DNA from: an uncultured Planctomycetales bacterium
GTDB lineage: Bacteria; Omnitrophota; Gorgyraeia; Zapsychrales; JANLHA01
Direction: 5' to 3'
DNA: 64,000 nt
NCBI GenBank assembly: GCA_964489065.1
Contig: CAZAXH010000001.1
Location: 310,358-374,357, forward strand
Shown here: positions 6,871 through 40,915 of the stretch, piece after piece
Position numbering within the stretch: position 1 is the first letter of the stretch
Layout: every line of letters starts with the position of its first letter
Made by a program: the position numbers and the translations under genes
The notes under the pieces: generated by a model
Database searches by the model: none
Told to the model about the DNA's origin: nothing
The model's input: only the letters and a program-made list of their open reading frames with translations

Positions 6871-6901
6871 CCGTTTACAAAAAAAACTTTAAGCCCTGCA
6901 C

Positions 6902-7052
6902 GGAACACGCCGCCCATGGGCCCTATGAACAATTCGCTGTGCGAAAGGATCCGGCTTTTTAACATGCCCACGGACATCCCCAGAGCGGAAAATGTTGTTA
7001 ACGGCTCCCGTTCATCCGTCGGCCTGCCCGCGGTCGTCTGCGGAGGCGGATA
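6902..7052. repeat. Copy Z of a ~150-nt intergenic palindromic element family (copies X, Y, Z)
   Basis: It shares the blocks ggaac / GCCCATGGGC (6912-6921) / gaaca..ttcgct / ttaacat / ggacatcccc / agcagaa / ttgttaac / ttcatcc / cggcctgcccgcgg / ggcggataa with the copies at 34080-34222 and 40756-40915. It lies about 100 nt upstream of the EEP gene start and overlaps the last ~13 codons of the 7012-7746 ORF. Confidence 0.6.
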
Positions 7053-7746
7053 AGACCCGGCGCCCGTTAACATCCTGAAGGATAATTTCCGGGACAACCC
7101 GAAACAGGTCGCCCTGTTGGATTTCTTTGGCCAGGCGTTCCTGCTGTGCCATATTAGAAACCTCATAAAGGGGGGTCTGGCTCATATCATTGATGACAGC
7201 GATCTTTTTACCAGGTTGATTATCCAGGGCTTTATAAAGCCGCCGGACATAAAGATCCATTTTTTCCGGCGGATACGGGAACACTTCGACCGCAGCCTTA
7301 AATATAATCTTCCCCCACTCTTCTTCCCCCAATTTCTGCATCAGGGCATACAGGGAACTGTATTTCAGCAGGCGCTGCTGGCCAGGCTTCAGTCGGCGGG
7401 AATGACTGAGAAGCATATGCGTCAATTCCTGCGGATTAAATGTCTTTAATTCTTTATGCACATCAAAATTCAGGAGGTTAAAATGATAAACCCCCCGCAC
7501 CGCCGCGGAAGCGGCTTCCACGCTGCGGTTCAGCAAATCCAGGCAGGATTCCCACACGAATTTCTCATCGCTGCGGATCACATTCACAGCGATGACGGTA
7601 TACGCTTCCCCGCCCTCCTGCGCTTCATACAGCTGAATGTAGCTGGGGAGCAGCCCTTTAAACCGGATCAGGTCAAACGACGGCAAGGTCACAAACGTTG
7701 GACTCGCCGCTATATCAAATTCCACCAGGTTGAGCATAACCATCAT
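7012..7746 (-). CDS. hypothetical protein
   Basis: 244-aa ORF starting at an ATG (MMVML), with no recognisable motifs. Its C-terminal low-complexity tail overlaps repeat copy Z. Confidence 0.5.
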   Translation of the reverse strand: MMVMLNLVEFDIAASPTFVTLPSFDLIRFKGLLPSYIQLYEAQEGGEAYTVIAVNVIRSDEKFVWESCLDLLNRSVEAASAAVRGVYHFNLLNFDVHKELKTFNPQELTHMLLSHSRRLKPGQQRLLKYSSLYALMQKLGEEEWGKIIFKAAVEVFPYPPEKMDLYVRRLYKALDNQPGKKIAVINDMSQTPLYEVSNMAQQERLAKEIQQGDLFRVVPEIILQDVNGRRVLSASADDRGQADG

Positions 7747-17499: not shown

Positions 17500-17609
17500 A
17501 CAACACCATCCTACCCTCGGGAACAAGGACTGTCAATGCGGAGTATTGCGTAAAAATTTTTTCGCGCCGGACGACGGAAAAATGAGAGACATAAACCCCA
17601 GAGCCAGCT

Positions 17610-17760
17610 CTGGGCTCAATGAACCGCAGCAAGCTGCTGGGTATTAAACCCATATCCTTCGGCTCGTTCGCTTGGGCTCTCTCGCTTGAAAGATCAATTC
17701 GCATTTTCAGTTCACACTCCCTTGGGTCGTGTAAACTGAATGCTCATTGAATAAAAACAG
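17610..17760. repeat. Copy A of a ~170-nt direct-repeat family (A/B) with internal 7-bp inverted repeat TCAATGA...TCATTGA
   Basis: Blocks gggctcaatgaaccgcagcaagctgctggg and ctcccttgggtcgtgtaaactgaatgctcattgaataaaaacag are shared, with the same spacing, with 21728-21892. It lies between the BtuB-like stop and the Mut7-C start and is followed by a C10 tract at 17801-17810. Confidence 0.6.
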
Positions 17761-17826
17761 CCCCCCAGGCCTGCGCGAGGCATCAGCGCTGGGAGGCTGT
17801 CCCCCCCCCCGGATTCGTCCTCAAGC

Positions 17827-19830
17827 CTAAAAGCTTAACTTCATGCCGACCAGGACATTCCTTTCCGCAGCCGGATAATAATCTTTCGTGTCAGAAAAAG
17901 AAGATTTCACAATATACGTGTTATACCGCTCATTAAACAAATTGTTCAAAGACAAAAAAATCTCCACCGGGTCTTTGCTCCAGCTGACCTTCGTGTCAAC
18001 CACAATATACGGTTTCCCGGGCGTGGTCGCGTTGGAAACGTCATTAATCGCATAACGAGACCCGACGTACCGACCCGTCAAAGATACCCCCCAGCATTTC
18101 CAAAACTTAAAACGGGTCCCGGCATTGAATTGATACACCGGCACCCAGGGAATCTGCTTCTGCGCATGGGGCCCATCTTTAAATGTCGCGTTCTGATAGG
18201 TATAATTCATAAAAATATCCCACTGCTCAACAGTATCGTCCTCCACCCAGTGCAGCATGTTGACCGTCTGCCCCAATTCCAGCCCGACGCGACGGGTAGA
18301 GTCGTAGTTCTCATTGGCAAAGGTCGAGGGGTCATAAAAAAGCTCGTGCTTGATATCCATCACATAGGCCGTGGCGTCAAGCTGAAGGACACGGTCAAAA
18401 TCATGACGGATCCCCACTTCGTACTGCAGTCCTGTTTGCGGGTCCAAGGACGTATTCAGCCCGCTGAAAGAGCTGTACCATTCGTCGGTGGATGGGAAAC
18501 GGAATGTCTGCTGGACGGAAACATTCACGTTGGAACCGGGAGCATATTCATAACGGCCCCCTATCTGGGAAACACTTTCATCCGGACGCTGATTCTCGTA
18601 AAAAGGGGTTCCGCTTTTCTGGTCAAATGTGTAGTGCGCTTTTTGGTAGCGAGTCCCGGCTAACAGAAACATTTTGTCCGTCAGGCCATATTCCGCGGAA
18701 ACATAATATCCCAGTTCCCTTTTGGAAATGGTCAATTCATCTGAATTCCCGGCGCTCCCCAAGATATCATTATCAACGTCATAATAATCCAACCCGAAGA
18801 CGCCTTTCAGAGGGAGGTCCTCTTCCAAAGAACCCAGGACATAACGCGCGTTGATCCCATAACTATCGATCCCCCGTTTCGTAGCGAAATCCCCAAACTC
18901 GCTGGTCAGCATGGCATACGTATCCCGGTTACGATAATTAAAATCCACAATCGCGTTCCCGCGCGCCCAGCCGTCCACGGGCGGCGCCCAATCCCAGGAT
19001 AACTGAAAGTTCCTGTCCTTGGTTGAGGCGTAATTTTCTTCATCAGCAGAGCCCCTCCGGCCCAGCCGCTGCAGTTCCTCTTCATTTAACCCTCCCGGCA
19101 TGCCGTAATCATCCTCATGCCACGAGGTGTTCACCGTCAAAGAAATATCCTCGGAAAAACGGTAGCCCACGGCATTGACAAAATCTTTATACAAAAGGTC
19201 GCTGTTGGAACGGTAGCCTTTTGTATCAAAATATTTCGTGAGCAAAAAATAGGAAAGCGGACCCCGGCGCCCGGAAACCGTTAAGTCTTCGCTGGTCGTA
19301 TTATAACTTCCGTGATTGCCCCCCAAAGCCCCGGAGATTTTCCCCTCTCCTTCCTTCTTGGTTATAATATTGACAACCCCGCCGACGGCATTATCTCCGT
19401 ATAAAACCGAGCCGGCCCCTCGGGTGATTTCAACACGGTCAATGGCTTCCAGCGGGATCTGCATAGGGTCAAAACCGGAATTATCAATGGAGTTCATTTT
19501 GCGGCCGTTCAATAAAAATAAAATATTATTCTTGGCGGTATCTCCAAACCCGCGAATATCTATAGTCGACACCTTTAAAGCGGTTCCGGGCTCATACATA
19601 AATATCCCGGCCTTCTCCTCCATGACCTCGCTCATGGAACGGCTGGGTGATTGCGCGAGATCCTGAGGCGTGATCACCATAATGTCTGATGAAACAGCGT
19701 CCGCCTGTTGCTCCATACGGCTGGCGGTGATAACGATCTCACCCAGGTCCATGTCCCGGCCGAATACCGCTGAAGCCCCCCCCCCTAAAAGACATATGAT
19801 AAGAACAACAAAAAAATTTTTCCGAAACAT
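17827..19830 (-). CDS. btuB: TonB-dependent outer-membrane receptor, cobalamin-type (BtuB-like)
   Basis: 667 aa with a signal peptide, a plug domain, a beta-barrel and a C-terminal aromatic residue (…MKLSF). It sits directly downstream of a cobalamin riboswitch with a terminator. A G10 run (plus-strand C10 at 19776-19785) encodes GGG inside the signal peptide. Confidence 0.85.
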   Translation of the reverse strand: MFRKNFFVVLIICLLGGGASAVFGRDMDLGEIVITASRMEQQADAVSSDIMVITPQDLAQSPSRSMSEVMEEKAGIFMYEPGTALKVSTIDIRGFGDTAKNNILFLLNGRKMNSIDNSGFDPMQIPLEAIDRVEITRGAGSVLYGDNAVGGVVNIITKKEGEGKISGALGGNHGSYNTTSEDLTVSGRRGPLSYFLLTKYFDTKGYRSNSDLLYKDFVNAVGYRFSEDISLTVNTSWHEDDYGMPGGLNEEELQRLGRRGSADEENYASTKDRNFQLSWDWAPPVDGWARGNAIVDFNYRNRDTYAMLTSEFGDFATKRGIDSYGINARYVLGSLEEDLPLKGVFGLDYYDVDNDILGSAGNSDELTISKRELGYYVSAEYGLTDKMFLLAGTRYQKAHYTFDQKSGTPFYENQRPDESVSQIGGRYEYAPGSNVNVSVQQTFRFPSTDEWYSSFSGLNTSLDPQTGLQYEVGIRHDFDRVLQLDATAYVMDIKHELFYDPSTFANENYDSTRRVGLELGQTVNMLHWVEDDTVEQWDIFMNYTYQNATFKDGPHAQKQIPWVPVYQFNAGTRFKFWKCWGVSLTGRYVGSRYAINDVSNATTPGKPYIVVDTKVSWSKDPVEIFLSLNNLFNERYNTYIVKSSFSDTKDYYPAAERNVLVGMKLSF
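19776..19785 (-). repeat. G10 homopolymer (plus-strand C10) inside the btuB-like signal-peptide coding region
   Basis: The minus-strand codons uua ggg ggg ggg gcu encode L-G-G-G-A of MFRKNFFVVLIICLLGGGASAVFG. Confidence 0.7.
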
Positions 19831-19883: not shown

Positions 19884-20060
19884 TGCACCCGTCTTACTTA
19901 GTCTCAATATATCCGTATTCCTATACTGTCTAACGCAGTATAAAAACACTTGAATATACCGGTAGGTGTTCTGGCTTCCGGGCAACGCTTCGCTCCGGTT
20001 ACAGCGGCGGGACCACTCCTGAATCACACAGGATTTCCCTATTTCATCTTCGGGTTTCCC
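19884..20060 (-). promoter_or_regulatory. Cobalamin (AdoCbl) riboswitch aptamer
   Basis: Minus-strand RNA reads ...auaGGGAAauccuGUGugAuuCAGGAGuGGUCCCGCCGCUGUAACCGG...GGAAGCCAGAACACCUACCGG. This matches the conserved GGGAA, GGUCCCGCC(A/G)CUGUAA and B12-box (AGYCAGGnnACCUGCC-like) elements. It is followed by the terminator and then the TonB-dependent receptor gene. Confidence 0.7.
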
Positions 20061-20179
20061 TCGAAGACCGGCATAATAAAAAAGAACTCAAAGAACGGCA
20101 TTCCCGTAGAATGCGACGTGTTTGTGTTTCCCCAAAAACACGTTTTCTCCACCAGCGGCCGGAGAAAGATCCCGTTCTG

Positions 20180-20689
20180 TTATGATCGGGAAGGCAACAA
20201 AATTGCGGCCAAGCGGGTATTCCTAACCGAAAACGCCACCGCTTCATACAAACCGCAAAACAAAACTGTGTACACGACCGTGCTTAAAAGACTATTGCGG
20301 AAAAACGGGATCGCAGCCACGTAGCAGGAAATAAATCCTTCGGCTGTCTTGGGGTACATCACCAGCCAAGCCCCGAAATTCGTTATAAGAAAATATAAAA
20401 CAGCGGCTAAAACCCCGGCTCCCAGCAGGTTTGAAACATGCCTGCGCCCCCGCATTTGATATCCCAGCCAGGCTATAAGGATAACGCTGCCCCAGGTAAA
20501 AAAGACAATTTCGTGCAGGCCAAGAATTAAATCCGAAATAACCATAAGGATGAGCGGGGTCATCCAGCCACTCTTCTTGCCCAGATAAAGCCCTCCAAAT
20601 AAAGCCAGCGCGATCACCGGAGTAAAGTTGGGCCAGTGGATAAAAATTCTGCTCATAACGCCAAAAAGCAATATTGCGAAAGCCAACAT
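20180..20689 (-). CDS. small polytopic membrane protein (5-6 TM; possible vitamin-transporter S-component-like)
   Basis: 169-aa hydrophobic protein directly upstream of the B12 riboswitch/btuB unit. There is no confident family match, so any functional assignment is only inference from context. Confidence 0.45.
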   Translation of the reverse strand: MLAFAILLFGVMSRIFIHWPNFTPVIALALFGGLYLGKKSGWMTPLILMVISDLILGLHEIVFFTWGSVILIAWLGYQMRGRRHVSNLLGAGVLAAVLYFLITNFGAWLVMYPKTAEGFISCYVAAIPFFRNSLLSTVVYTVLFCGLYEAVAFSVRNTRLAAILLPSRS

Positions 20690-21524: not shown

Positions 21525-21727
21525 TCATGCTTTTTGTGTCCAGGGATAGAAATCCTGAAGCAAATCCGTTACATCATATCTCAATGTGTGTTGAAACACA
21601 ATAAAAAACTTAAGGAGGCGTTCAGGAAAACGTCCTATTGCCAGAGGCTGGCTGAAAGGATAAAACGAACAGACGCCGGAGAGCAGAAGAAACAAAAAAC
21701 ATTAAATCAAAGGTATAAGCAAGCTTT

Positions 21728-21892
21728 GGACTCAATGAACCGCGGCAATCTGCGGGGGGGGGGGGGGGGGGTGAAAAAACATACCTTTGGAGCGTTCGAA
21801 TGGCAAACACGCCCCTATTCAAATACTATTTTTATTTTAAACTCCCCTCCTTGGGTCGTCGTGTAAACTAAGTATTCATTGAATCAAAACAG
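21728..21892. repeat. Copy B of the ~170-nt direct-repeat family (A/B); contains a G18 homopolymer
   Basis: ggactcaatgaaccgcggcaatctgcg and ctcccctccttgggtcgtcgtgtaaactaagtattcattgaatcaaaacag match copy A at about 85% in the conserved blocks. G18 lies at 21754-21771. Confidence 0.6.
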
Positions 21893-21946
21893 ACCGGTTA
21901 TTGAATCACGGGAATATCTTGCAACGGAAAAAGGGTGACGAATTCA

Positions 21947-33688: not shown

Positions 33689-34180
33689 TCACCCATCTGC
33701 TGCGTCCTGAATAAACTGATTAATACAGGCCGAGAGACGATCCACGTTCAGCAAAGCCAACTGCAGAAGGTGCGCCTGTTCCTTATTGACTTCTCCAAAC
33801 AGACGGTCATCCAACTGTGAAAGGCTCTCGTGGATCACGGTAATGGGTGTCCGCAAATCATGAGACACCCTGGCGATGAAATCCTGTTTAAAACAGGCCG
33901 CTTCCCGCAAGTCATGCTCCTGCCGGGCGACCTGTTTTTGAAGTTGATCTAAAAGCGTTTTCAGGCGCTGGATTTCGTCTTCCAAGTTTAAAGGCCACCT
34001 TTCCGTTCTTTCTCCAACACGTCCAGCATCGTCATTGTCTGCCAGGCAAAAACTGACGATCCCGAAGGTCAAAAACAAAGCCCACCCCTTGGGCGTGGGT
34101 CCTACTTCGCCGGAAGGATCTAACGCGTTAACAGACGTGCGAATATCCCTAAAGCAGAAGGACTTATTAACCTCTCGCAT
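33689..34180 (-). pseudogene. HisKA (DHp) domain-only ORF, probable histidine-kinase remnant
   Basis: FIARVSHDLRTPITVIHESLSQL is a clear H-box, but there is no HATPase_c domain. The first ~40 codons lie inside the conserved non-coding repeat copy Y, and there is no internal Met. Confidence 0.4.
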
Positions 34181-34222
34181 TCATTCACGGGCCTGCCCGC
34201 GGCCTTCGGCGAAAGCGAATAA
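34080..34222. repeat. Copy Y of the ~150-nt palindromic element family
   Basis: Aligns with X and Z: ccttgggcgtggg / gcgaatatccctaaagcagaaggacttattaacctctcgcattcattcacgggcctgcccgcggcc / gaaagcgaataa. It overlaps the 5' part of the HisKA ORF. Confidence 0.6.
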
Positions 34223-34297
34223 ACGCAAGGGCTTTTTATTCTAATAAGCCGAAAACCCTTTGACAAGGCAAATATTTTTCTCTTCTTGCGCCGTCTT

Positions 34298-37657: not shown

Positions 37658-40600
37658 TTATGAAGCAGCCTGCTTTCTTTTCATCAACTCTTCCCGCTCC
37701 GCTTTAATTTTCTCCGCCATCTGGAAGGGGACTTCCGAATAAAAATTGGGCTCCATCGAAAACGACGCGCGCCCCTGCGTCAGGGAACGCAGGGCATTCG
37801 CGTAATTAAACATCTCTGACAAGGGGACATCGCAAAGGGCGGTTTTCTGTTTCCCCTGGACCCCCATATTGACGATCCTGGCCCGCCGGCTGTTTAAATC
37901 TCCAATGACCGCGCCAATAAATTCTTCCGGGACCGAACATTCCAGCTTCATAACCGGCTCGAGAAAAATCGATTTCCCGCGGCGCAGCCCTTCTTTCAAC
38001 GCGGTTTTGGCGGCCAGCTGAAAGGCGATGTCGCTGGAGTCTACCTCATGGAAGGACCCGTCAACCAAAGTGACCGTAAAATCCGTCACCGGGTAACCGG
38101 CCAGAATGCCGCTGGCTGCCCCCGCCCGGATGCCTTTCTCAATGGAAGGAATATATTCCCGGGGAATCACGCCGCCTTTAATTTTGTCAACAAACTTAAT
38201 GCCGTCCCCGGGCTTCTCACTGGGTGCAATATCAATCACGCAGTGTCCGTACTGCCCCCGGCCGCCGGTCTGGGAAATAAATTTCCCTTCCACATGGTCC
38301 GCTCTTTCCTTAATAGTTTCACGGTAGGCCACCTGGGGCCGCCCGATATTGGTTTCCAAATTATGCTCGCGTTTCATCCGGTCAATGATAATTTCCAAAT
38401 GCAGTTCCCCCATCCCGGACAACAGGGTCTGGCCGGTTTCATGGTCATAAGACACCCGCAGGGAAGGATCCTCATCCAGGAACTTCTTTAAAATAAACCC
38501 CATTTTGTCCTGGTCCGCCTTGGTCTGCGGTTCAATCGCCATAGAAATAACCGGCTCCGGAGCCTGGATGCTTTCCAATAGAATCGGATTGTCTTCGTCA
38601 CAAATCGTATTCCCGGATTTGGCTTCTTTCAAGCCGACCAGGGCGACGATCTCGCCGGCGCCCGCGCGGGATATGATTTCCTGTTTGTTGGCATGCATCA
38701 TCACGATTTTAGCCACCCGTTCCCTTTTCTCAAGGGAAGAATTGTAGATCGTCTTCCCCGATTCGATGACGCCGGAATAAACCCGCGTGTAAAACAATTT
38801 ACCCACATAAGGATCCGAGGCGATTTTAAAAATCAGGGCGCTCAAAGGCTCTTGCACGGACGGATGCCGCTGAACGGGGTCCCCGGTCCTAGGATGCGTT
38901 CCGGCCACCGGGGGTACATCAAGGGGAGAGGGGAGGTAATCAACGATCGCGTCCAAAACTTTCTGCACGCCGCGGTTTCGCAAAGCGGTCCCCACCAGGG
39001 CCGGGAAAAAGGCGTTTTTCACAACGCCCCGCCGGATGGCCGGGATGATGTCTTCCGCTGGGATATCCTGCTCCGACAGCAGCTTTTCCATAATAATATC
39101 GTCGCATGTGGACAGTCTTTCCAGAAGAGTCCGGCGGACCTCCTTCGCTTTTTCCTGCAATGCGGACGGGATGTCCTGCTCTTCAAATTTCATGCCTTCC
39201 TCATCTAAATAATGGATATATTTCATGCGGACCACATCCACAATGCCTTTAAACTGATCCTCTGCCCCGTCCGGAAGCTGAACAGCGGCCACGTTGGCTC
39301 CGATACGGTCCTCAATCTGCTGCAGAACACGGAAAAAATCCGCCCCCATACGGTCAATCTTATTAATAAAGAAAATCCTCGGCACATGGTACCGGTCCGC
39401 CTGCCGCCAGACGGTTTCGGTCTGAGACTGAACCCCGCTCGTGGCGCAAAGCACGACCACCGCCCCATCCAGGACCTTCAGCGACCGCTCGACTTCCACG
39501 GTAAAATCCACGTGTCCCGGAGTATCAATAACATTAATTTTCTTCCCCTTCCAGAAACAGGTCGTGTTAGCTGCCGTAATCGTGATCCCTCTCTCCTGTT
39601 CCTGTTCCATCCAATCCATCGTCGCGTTGCCTTCGTCGACCGTCCCCATCTTGTGAATAACGCCGGTATAATAAAGCACCCGTTCGGTCGTCGTGGTCTT
39701 GCCGGCGTCAATATGGGCGATAATCCCGATATTCCGTACTTCAGCGAGATCCTCATCCCCACCCGAGCTGACGGCGGCCGGTTCGCCTTCAGCCAGCGTT
39801 TCCTGCCCGGCAGGCTGCCCGTCACCTGTGGGCTCCTGGAGGCTAGCCGCGGCCGGCCCTGCCACCTCAGCGGCAAATTCCGGTTCCTGAAGGACCTCAA
39901 CCGGGGGCACTAATAATTCCTCCTCCCACATCCGGATATCCACGCCAAGCTGTTTCCGGACAAATAAAATTGCATCCTCACCTTTCTCCTTAATACGCGC
40001 TATGAGATTCAAGAGCTTCTCGCTTTTGTCCGCCGCCAGCTTCTTTCTCTCCCGGATCTTCTCTTCCACCTCCGCGGCTTTTTTTTGTGCCGTCTGCACG
40101 TCCAACCGACAGTCTTTGATTCCGGTCTCGGCGTCACGAAAAGCTCTTTCCCTCTGTTTAATTTTCTCTTCCAAAAGATTCACCCGTTCCGAACACTCCC
40201 GGGCCTCCTGTTCCTTTTTTTGGAGACTATCCTGAAGAGCCAGCCGCTCTTCTTTGGCCCGGCTGATCCCTTCATTCAAATGGTTGCGAATATGGTCAAA
40301 TTCCTGAATATAACGGCGTTCGCCGCGCAACGCCGCGCTGGTATTCTTAATGATCCTTTTCTTGTCCGTTATCAACGCCTTCAAATGATGATGCTGCTCG
40401 GTACACTCGCGCAATTTCCGCTCCAAATCATCATGCAGAATCGATAATTCCAGGGCCCGGTTAATGTCCTCCGTGGCCACGCCCTCATATTCAGACAACA
40501 CGTCCGCCTCCCCCTGAGAAGGGGCGCCTTTCCCTGATTTTACAGACGCCTCTTCCGTGCGGATTCCCACCCGGGTCAACAATTCGGACGTCGTAACCGG

Positions 40601-40726
40601 CTGATTGTAAACCGGCGCTGCGCGTTTGCGGATAAACTGTTCGACCTTTTTCTCTTTCCACATGAACCAGGCGATCGTTCCCAGTCCAACAACAATGCAC
40701 ATTGTTCCTATAAAAAAAATAATCAT
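37658..40726 (-). CDS. EF-G-like translational GTPase fused to an N-terminal transmembrane helix and ~300-aa coiled-coil region
   Basis: 1022-aa uninterrupted ORF from an ATG. Residues 1-23 are hydrophobic ([23 protein letters not shown]). Residues ~90-270 are E/K/R/L-rich heptad-like coiled coil, followed by an acidic Pro/Ala linker. From residue ~325 on there is a complete EF-G: the G domain [22 protein letters not shown] / DTPGHVDF / NKIDR, domains II-V, and the domain IV loop [10 protein letters not shown]. Codon usage in the extension is genome-typical. Confidence 0.8.
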
Positions 40727-40755
40727 AATAAAAAAATTTATTGGTTATCAAAAAT

Positions 40756-40915
40756 GGAACCCATGCCCATGGGCGTGATACTTACGAACACTTCGCTTCA
40801 TGGAATGATTTGACGTCTTAATATGCGTGCGGACATCCCCAAAGCAGAAGCCCCCTTGTTAACCTTTCGCTTTTATCCACGGGCATGCCCGTGGTCTTAA
40901 AGGCGGATAAAAATA
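40756..40915. repeat. Copy X of the ~150-nt palindromic element family, upstream of the EF-G fusion gene
   Basis: Contains GCCCATGGGC (40765-40774) and the perfect 18-bp palindrome CCACGGGCATGCCCGTGG (40877-40894), together with the blocks shared with Y and Z. It lies 30-190 nt upstream of the 40726 start codon. Confidence 0.6.

Follow-up and report, generated by a model that had tools for sequence, protein, structure and literature searches.

A non-coding sequence of approximately 150 nt, present in three intergenic copies (X, Y and Z) in the 64-kb stretch of DNA analysed here (the window) and in a fourth copy between cmk and lepA of a sister strain, is on balance best explained as a non-autonomous mobile element that resembles the PATEs derived from the IS200/IS605 family, and whose several intergenic insertions would go back to the ancestor of a species-level lineage of Candidatus Omnitrophota. 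The comparison of filled with empty sites, a precise junction and neutral drift are the decisive evidence for insertion. The element is classified as PATE-like with moderate confidence, because it has neither terminal inverted repeats (TIRs) nor target-site duplications (TSDs), follows a one-sided, T-rich 4-nt motif, bears predicted hairpins near both ends, lies on what is expected to be the lagging-strand template and has no coding capacity.

Four copies of a short intergenic repeat

A profile search of the window with nhmmer returned exactly three full-length matches, all on the minus (sense) strand, which correspond to copies X (match span 40740-40915, E = 2e-50), Y (34061-34227, E = 3e-48) and Z (6890-7058, E = 1.5e-47). 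These E values place the three copies far beyond chance, and a repeat search of the window also recovered the same family. The element that the initial annotation had described in three copies of about 150 nt is therefore real, with limits close to those given there (Table 1), and so is the common orientation that it had reported. No fourth copy was found by nhmmer within the 64-kb window, where everything beyond X, Y and Z scored E ≥ 0.015; the best remaining match (E = 0.015) is the palindrome of X, read on the opposite strand. Pairwise identities between copies are 64-73%, with a star-like pattern.

The window genome belongs to Candidatus Omnitrophota, and every homologue of its 1014-aa EF-G paralogue bears the name Candidatus Omnitrophota or Omnitrophica. 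A homologue with 98% identity to the protein upstream of Z is encoded on contig JAKQCK010000024.1 (619 kb) of assembly GCA_029559195.1, here called the sister strain, and over 17.7 kb the locus around it (L081) matches the window at 94.4% identity. The sister strain carries Z as well as the copy between cmk and lepA (the lepA copy), both on this contig and on the same strand. Since the lepA copy sits on the sister-strain contig with Z, the four known copies all come from one species-level lineage.

We scanned GTDB genomes (one per species), metagenomes and viral contigs with a 20-mer from the most conserved block of the element, TTCYGCTYTRGGGATRTYCG. Only one of the 24 matches in GTDB genomes was real (L008), as was only one of the 36 in metagenomes (L046); both have the same sequence, which is that of the lepA copy. 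The viral contigs gave no matches. These negatives are weak evidence of absence, because Z of the sister strain has three changes inside the 20-mer. The negatives from metagenomes are also weak because the scan missed JGI contigs Ga0268387_1000133 and Ga0116236_10000019, which hold an identical lepA copy that matches the pattern, indicating that the contig collection is not exhaustive. A blastn search of plasmid and phage collections with X gave no match, and a search of the literature on repeats and non-coding RNA in Omnitrophota found nothing relevant.

In the alignment of the copies, the variable columns are spread over the three codon positions as 12/12/10, and there is thus no coding pattern in any frame, on either strand, which bears out the earlier view that conservation acts at the DNA or RNA level. 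Similar peptides of ~29 aa can be translated from a plus-strand frame of Z, Y and the lepA copy; Z and the lepA copy also have an open frame on the sense strand, where JGI called a 52-aa ORF. We rejected a protein-coding reading on this codon-position count and because two copies have no start codon, and X and Y contain frameshifts or stops; judged from the sequences, the likeness between the peptides is one of nucleotide conservation only.

At the gathering threshold, Rfam placed no family on any copy, and its only match in the whole window was a cobalamin riboswitch elsewhere. With E relaxed up to 10, searches of X and of positions 6800-41000 gave no family that matches the other copies; the sub-threshold matches overlapping X, tpke11 (17.4 bits against a gathering score of 43) and ST7-OT4_1, are chance matches. 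Likewise, the covariance models of Rfam 15 for HEARO, group II intron domains and self-cleaving ribozymes did not match the element. We also considered, and dropped, a likeness to attC, dif/Xer sites, IHF sites, sigma-54 promoters, DnaA boxes and group IIC introns, whose consensus features are absent from the element.

Table 1. Location of the element copies, of their structural motifs and of adjacent signals. Coordinates are those of the window unless a locus is named.
Feature	Position	Strand	Basis and context
Copy X, 154 nt	40754..40907	-	nhmmer; limits via homology to the Z junction; between fmt terminator and EF-G paralogue gene
Copy Y, ~145 nt	about 34075..34219	-	nhmmer; limits via homology to the Z junction; in 5′ UTR of short HisKA gene
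Copy Z, 151 nt	6900..7050	-	nhmmer; junction against empty sites; between 244-aa protein of unknown function and EEP-domain membrane protein
lepA copy	L064:9813-9969		limits transferred by homology from the Z junction
18-bp perfect palindrome CCACGGGCATGCCCGTGG	40877..40894	.	subterminal hairpin near the 5′ end of X
Palindrome GCCCATGGGC	40765-40774 in X; 6912-6921 in Z		exact-sequence location
Segment B (AUGCCCGUGGAUA), 5′ strand of covarying helix	40874..40886	-	alignment columns 36-48, hand-mapped; overlaps 3′ arm of the palindrome
Segment C (UGUCCGCACGCAU), 3′ strand of covarying helix	40823..40835	-	alignment columns 87-99, hand-mapped
3′ hairpin of X with GCCCATGGGC, then T-run; terminator-like	40749..40774	-	consensus scan only
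3′ hairpin of Y (GCCCAAGGGGTGGGC), then TTTGTTTTTG; terminator-like	34070..34094	-	consensus scan only
Host promoter-like site TTGTCA-17-TAGAAT, directly upstream of Y	34238..34266	-	kept in L061-L063, which lack the element
TTTA directly 5′ of X, putative target motif	40908..40911	-	flank listing; empty site in L063 ..CATCATTTTTTA^AAAAC..
TTTA directly 5′ of Y, putative target motif	34220..34223	-	flank listing; empty site in L063 ..CACTTTA^AGCC..
CTTA directly 5′ of Z	7051..7054	-	host sequence, Leu codon of upstream gene; empty sites GGGTTTTG (L091), GGGTTTTA (L092)

The window contains a second, unrelated family of intergenic repeats of ~150-200 nt, with copies 84-85% identical and the core ..AGTTTACACGACC..AAGCGAACGAGCCGAAGGATATGGGTTT..GCTGCGGTTCATTGAGYCCAGAGCT..; two minus-strand copies are at 17591-17763 and 21718-21895. 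At least one further copy lies near lepA of the sister strain (L064:21077-21216), where it is partly duplicated in tandem; this family has no Rfam match. The cobalamin riboswitch mentioned above (RF00174, 64.9 bits, 19944-20087, minus strand) is directly upstream of a gene for a TonB-dependent receptor (17827-19830), with a DUF6580/ECF-transporter-like gene (20180-20689) on its 5′ side, an ordinary arrangement for B12 uptake.

Filled and empty sites, junctions and drift

In the nearest other species, each of the four orthologous sites lacks the element. As empty sites for X and Y we used three syntenic loci (L061-L063) whose EF-G paralogue is 80-85% identical to that of the window. The gap between fmt and the EF-G gene, where X lies, measures 75, 22 and 79 nt in L061, L062 and L063, respectively, versus ~260 nt in the window, and the flanks align in these loci with the element missing between them. 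Around Y, the GAPDH terminator and the promoter-like site TTGTCA-17-TAGAAT are kept almost base for base in L061-L063, which have a short, unrelated leader in place of the element. The gap between cmk and lepA is 220 nt in ten sister-strain contigs, which carry an identical copy, versus 58 nt, without the copy, in seven contigs of a species with a 92%-identical LepA. For Z, the empty sites were those of relatives L091 (87%) and L092 (83%), where the upstream protein ends in ..NGHRVLRRP and a stop codon, with the EEP gene following at -29 or +27 nt; in the window and in L081, the frame instead passes from ..NGRRVL into the element, which supplies the tail SASADDRGQADG and the stop codon. No copy of the element, not even a weak one, was detected in the 177 kb of loci from relatives.

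The left junction of Z can be read to within a few bases because it falls in coding sequence: the element starts with TCCGCC (7050) and ends near GTGTTCCGT (6900). Comparison with L091 and L092 disclosed no duplicated host bases at Z; the junctions of X, Y and the lepA copy are consistent with a lack of target duplication but are blurred by divergence. The 5′ flanks of the four copies read TTTA, TTTA, CTTA and TTTA, the equivalent point of the empty sites has TTTA or TTTG (TTTA at the X, Y and lepA sites), and the 3′ flanks are mutually unrelated. The 5′ motif is proven to be host sequence at Z only, where it belongs to a Leu codon that reads TTG or TTA where the element is absent; at the X, Y and lepA sites, whose junctions are less precise, TTTA could be part of the element rather than its target. 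An inverted-repeat search of the four copies and their flanks found internal pairs only and no TIRs, and the termini, TCCGCC.. and ..GTTCCNT, are not complementary.

The same contrast between filled and empty sites would be left by a non-autonomous element that moved by another route, either through an IS110/IS1111-type recombinase, which is site-specific and produces no TSD, or as a decayed DDE-type MITE with eroded TIRs and TSDs. Eroded termini are conceivable because the copies are old and diverged, and there are short inverted matches near the ends, of CCACGGGC with GCCCATGG, invariant in all copies, and, by our own reading, of CCGCC with GGYGG. These matches are, however, internal rather than terminal, the junction of Z has no duplicated host bases, and a TTTA fixed on the 5′ side only is not the footprint of a MITE that duplicates TA. 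We regard such a route as unlikely.

Z is the one copy that can be compared between strains, and it is drifting. Between the window and the sister strain, 12 of its 151 positions differ (7.9%), as compared with 9.7% of third codon positions and 9.2% of intergenic DNA over the same 17.7 kb (first and second codon positions, 3.3% and 2.5%), indicating that Z changes at an essentially neutral rate. The most conserved block contains three of its changes, and a G-to-A substitution in segment B disrupts a pair of the helix described below. The filled and empty sites, the precise junction and this neutral drift favour the MITE-like repeat among the readings offered in the initial annotation. That annotation would have recognised a mobile repeat by copies at random positions and orientations, including inside genes; the mobile reading stands, but it was these three lines of evidence that decided it instead.

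Folding and possible roles as operator or RNA

The palindromes had been put forward as paired operators of a dimeric DNA-binding regulator with a small regulon. They do occur where claimed, CCACGGGCATGCCCGTGG in X and GCCCATGGGC in X and Z, and the two are ~100 nt apart in X. The operator reading nevertheless finds no support, because the palindromes are not conserved between copies, are absent elsewhere in the window and belong to sites that relatives have without the element. Only X has the 18-bp palindrome in perfect form, with degenerate versions in Y, Z and the lepA copy, GCCCATGGGC is intact in X and Z only, and neither has a further occurrence in the window. Moreover, the copies have the full 150 nt in common, not the palindromes alone, and the relatives with empty sites keep the same genes. 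Operators of this kind are thus highly improbable.

The 5′ hairpin formed by the 18-bp palindrome has no covariation support across the four copies, with 85.7% of cells pairing and 446 of 500 shuffles doing as well. The best-supported helix is instead internal and joins segments B and C: 4 of its 11 pairs are changed on both sides across the four copies and 97.7% of the cells pair, a proportion that falls to 23-54% once the partner is displaced by 1-3 columns. In our tally of pair types, G:U accounts for 10 of the 44 cells of helix B:C, and the sense strand therefore fits the fold better. Segment B can alternatively pair with the first bases of the element (UUAUCCG), with 100% of cells paired and one double change, and in copy Y the 5′ end, segment B and segment C all carry a matching C-to-U or G-to-A change. 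The folding energies of the sense strand are unremarkable (z = -1.5 for X, -1.1 for Y, +0.6 for Z and -2.5 for the lepA copy). Two further pairings were considered: a GTTAAC/GTTAA helix was rejected, the lepA copy turning both partners to C:C, and an extension of the helix between the 5′ end and segment B into the 5′ flank holds in Y only and partly in X.

Helix B:C, with its double changes and its G:U pairs favouring the sense strand, could belong to a cis-acting, structured leader or attenuator RNA, as had been suggested initially. Such an RNA would alternate between two folds, the palindrome hairpin with the 3′ terminator on the one hand, and helix B:C with the 5′ arm of the palindrome paired to the 5′ arm of the terminator on the other, and would so tune read-through into the downstream gene. 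Segment B can indeed switch to the 5′ end of the element or to the other arm of the palindrome, terminator-like hairpins followed by T-runs close both X and Y, and a conserved promoter-like site shortly precedes Y. Like riboswitch and attenuator leaders, the element is found on the sense strand upstream of genes and has mutually exclusive helices. Unlike them, it is not kept at orthologous genes, being absent before the same genes in the nearest species; the genes that follow it, for the EF-G paralogue, the EEP membrane protein, the HisKA protein and LepA, have no common function; and it has no Rfam match. In addition, X is upstream of the promoter-like site of its gene, as located by consensus scan, the lepA copy has no T-run, the folding z values are not exceptional, and Z evolves at the neutral rate, its pair-breaking change included (purifying selection was examined for Z only). 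A constitutive function as leader RNA is thus disfavoured for Z only, and for X and Y the leader reading, though disfavoured, keeps a low probability. Of the structured leader, then, one helix with compensatory changes stands, and as an account of the element as a whole we find it improbable.

We give similarly little credence to the copies being paralogous genes for trans-acting small RNAs, or, in a variant, guide (omega) RNAs borne by PATEs for a TnpB or IscB nuclease encoded elsewhere. The discrete units of ~150 nt would suit such genes, as would the strongly conserved and apparently unpaired core CUUCUGCUUUGGGGAU and, in Y, a promoter-like site at the 5′ end and a terminator-like 3′ end; omega RNAs are a frequent cargo of PATEs (PMC10055086). 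Against this, no recognisable promoter of its own is present in X, Z or the lepA copy, the conserved core differs by three substitutions between the Z copies of the two strains, neither HEARO nor any other Rfam family matches, and the T-run that starts at the 3′ boundary of X and Y would leave no room for a flanking guide.

Mobility and RNA function could also be combined in a mobile, self-folding RNA module, namely a PATE-borne omega-like guide for a TnpB or IscB of Omnitrophota or a portable attenuator cassette with a switchable terminator. The changes in helix B:C and the three-way change in Y would then reflect selection on an RNA with two folds. This combination is quite unlikely in our estimation.

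Proposed PATE-like movement and possible consequences for neighbouring genes

For the preferred reading, that of a PATE-like mobile element, the known systems of reference are the IS605 superfamily and the protein-less PATEs. PMC4810608 and PMC10055086 describe these as lacking TIRs and TSDs, having subterminal hairpins and inserting 3′ of a 4-5-nt target, and the IS200/IS605 superfamily and PATEs as moving in the form of single-stranded DNA by means of a Y1 (HUH) transposase, which acts in trans. By analogy, the element would move as single-stranded DNA; a Y1 transposase supplied in trans would cut 3′ of the TTTA motif and would recognise the subterminal hairpins on the strand that serves as lagging-strand template. 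The compensatory changes of helix B:C may have arisen in active source copies that need the fold in order to move, with the resident copies decaying afterwards.

The plus-strand GC skew across the window is -0.09 to -0.15, which makes the sense strand G-rich, and the sense-strand skew is +0.11 to +0.15 in every locus fetched. All four copies lie on this G-rich strand, the sense strand of the surrounding genes. Where genes are co-directional with replication, the G-rich sense strand is the lagging-strand template. This same-strand bias is confounded, as the flanking genes all run the same way, and it would be equally explained by selection for transcription of the sense strand. With respect to the hairpins, one starts 13-17 nt from the 5′ end of the element and another ends ~6-10 nt from its 3′ end, and the two are dissimilar.

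The element thus shares with PATEs its short length, the lack of coding capacity, TIRs and TSDs, the potential of palindromes near each end to form hairpins on one strand, the position directly after a fixed, T-rich 4-nt motif, the location of copies on the expected lagging-strand template and a lineage-specific presence. It differs from them in having unlike end hairpins, very few copies at 64-73% identity and its best helix inside, and no tnpA or full-length partner was found for it: Pfam scans of the window and the gene tables of the fetched loci disclosed no transposase gene, and neither the window nor these loci contain a full-length element with the same ends. For a MITE burst, four known copies are unusually few and their divergence is unusually high, and an internal helix as the best-supported one is a feature that the IS200/IS605 mechanism does not need; both count against our explanation.

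Other families of repeats offer partial parallels. Correia/NEMIS, RUP, ERIC/IRU and BOX are likewise intergenic repeats of 100-200 nt that are co-transcribed with their neighbours, can fold extensively, are patchily distributed among close relatives and may bear promoter-like or terminator-like signals. Correia and RUP, however, have TIRs and TA duplications, neither of which occurs in the element, and classical MITE families usually comprise tens to hundreds of near-identical copies in both orientations. The REP and REPIN sequences associated with RAYT, an IS200-like Y1 enzyme, are similar in being palindrome-bearing, extragenic, possibly mobilised by Y1 and free of target duplications. A REPIN consists of two symmetrically paired REP units of ~25 nt, which together fold into one long hairpin, and is present in hundreds of copies, whereas the element is an asymmetric unit of 150 nt with a conserved, non-palindromic core, in which a stretch of 64 nt between the strands of helix B:C and the 3′ half has no mirror counterpart.

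Insertion has plausibly had side effects on adjacent genes, to judge from the sequences. X is located between the fmt terminator and a promoter-like site, TTGATA-18-TATGAT in the consensus scan, whose -35 hexamer forms at the 3′ boundary of the element. In Y, the terminator-like hairpin and T-run stand between the conserved promoter-like site and the HisKA gene, where they could plausibly affect expression of this neighbour. At Z, the upstream protein now takes its last 12 residues and its stop codon from the first 36 nt of the element, and it is 9-12 aa longer than its orthologues. Such effects are the usual by-products of intergenic repeats and are not evidence of a regulon.

The distances to neighbouring genes had to be revised. 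X ends ~28-52 nt and Z 30 nt before the downstream start codons, not ~100 nt as first annotated. Nor does Y overlap the 5′ end of the HisKA gene: the 163-aa HisKA ORF (33689-34180, minus strand) is an artefact of reading through Y, as its orthologues have 99-100 aa. By our reading of the alignment, the gene in the window most likely starts at a TTG near 33985, after GAAAGGTGG; Y would then be in the 5′ UTR, ~90 nt before this start and behind the conserved promoter. Between Y and the HisKA start, positions 34028-34060 form an inverted repeat with 16-nt arms (ATCGTCAGTTTTTGCC and GGCAGACAATGACGAT on the sense strand) that is absent from the orthologous leader of L063; it could represent a further small insertion or belong to the 3′ flank of Y.

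The EF-G paralogue downstream of X (37658-40726, minus strand) likely starts at the second ATG, at 40702, behind an AGGA sequence. It has a homologue (P0005) that is 96% identical. By our inspection, its N-terminal extension of ~320 aa consists of one hydrophobic helix followed by a charged region rich in Glu, Lys and Arg, and full-length homologues of 990-1100 aa recur in many Omnitrophota beside the ordinary EF-G of ~700 aa. The protein upstream of Z (7012-7746, minus strand) is conserved, with 232-244 aa and no Pfam domain, and is always encoded between a GYF_2-domain protein and the EEP membrane protein; it is confined to a few close relatives within Omnitrophota, with only 5 clusters among 5.8 billion proteins.

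For annotation, the element matters in that it created a false HisKA ORF of 163 aa and added 12 residues to a conserved protein. It also calls for caution in motif hunting: intergenic blocks that looked like a regulon or a leader were shown to be insertions by the comparison of filled with empty sites and by the rate of change between strains. No long-standing question is opened by these results, whose value lies mainly in the annotation of Omnitrophota genomes and in a lead to an IS200/IS605-type system there. If our reading is right, this would be the first small non-autonomous mobile element described from Candidatus Omnitrophota, an uncultivated phylum in which mobile DNA has hardly been mapped.
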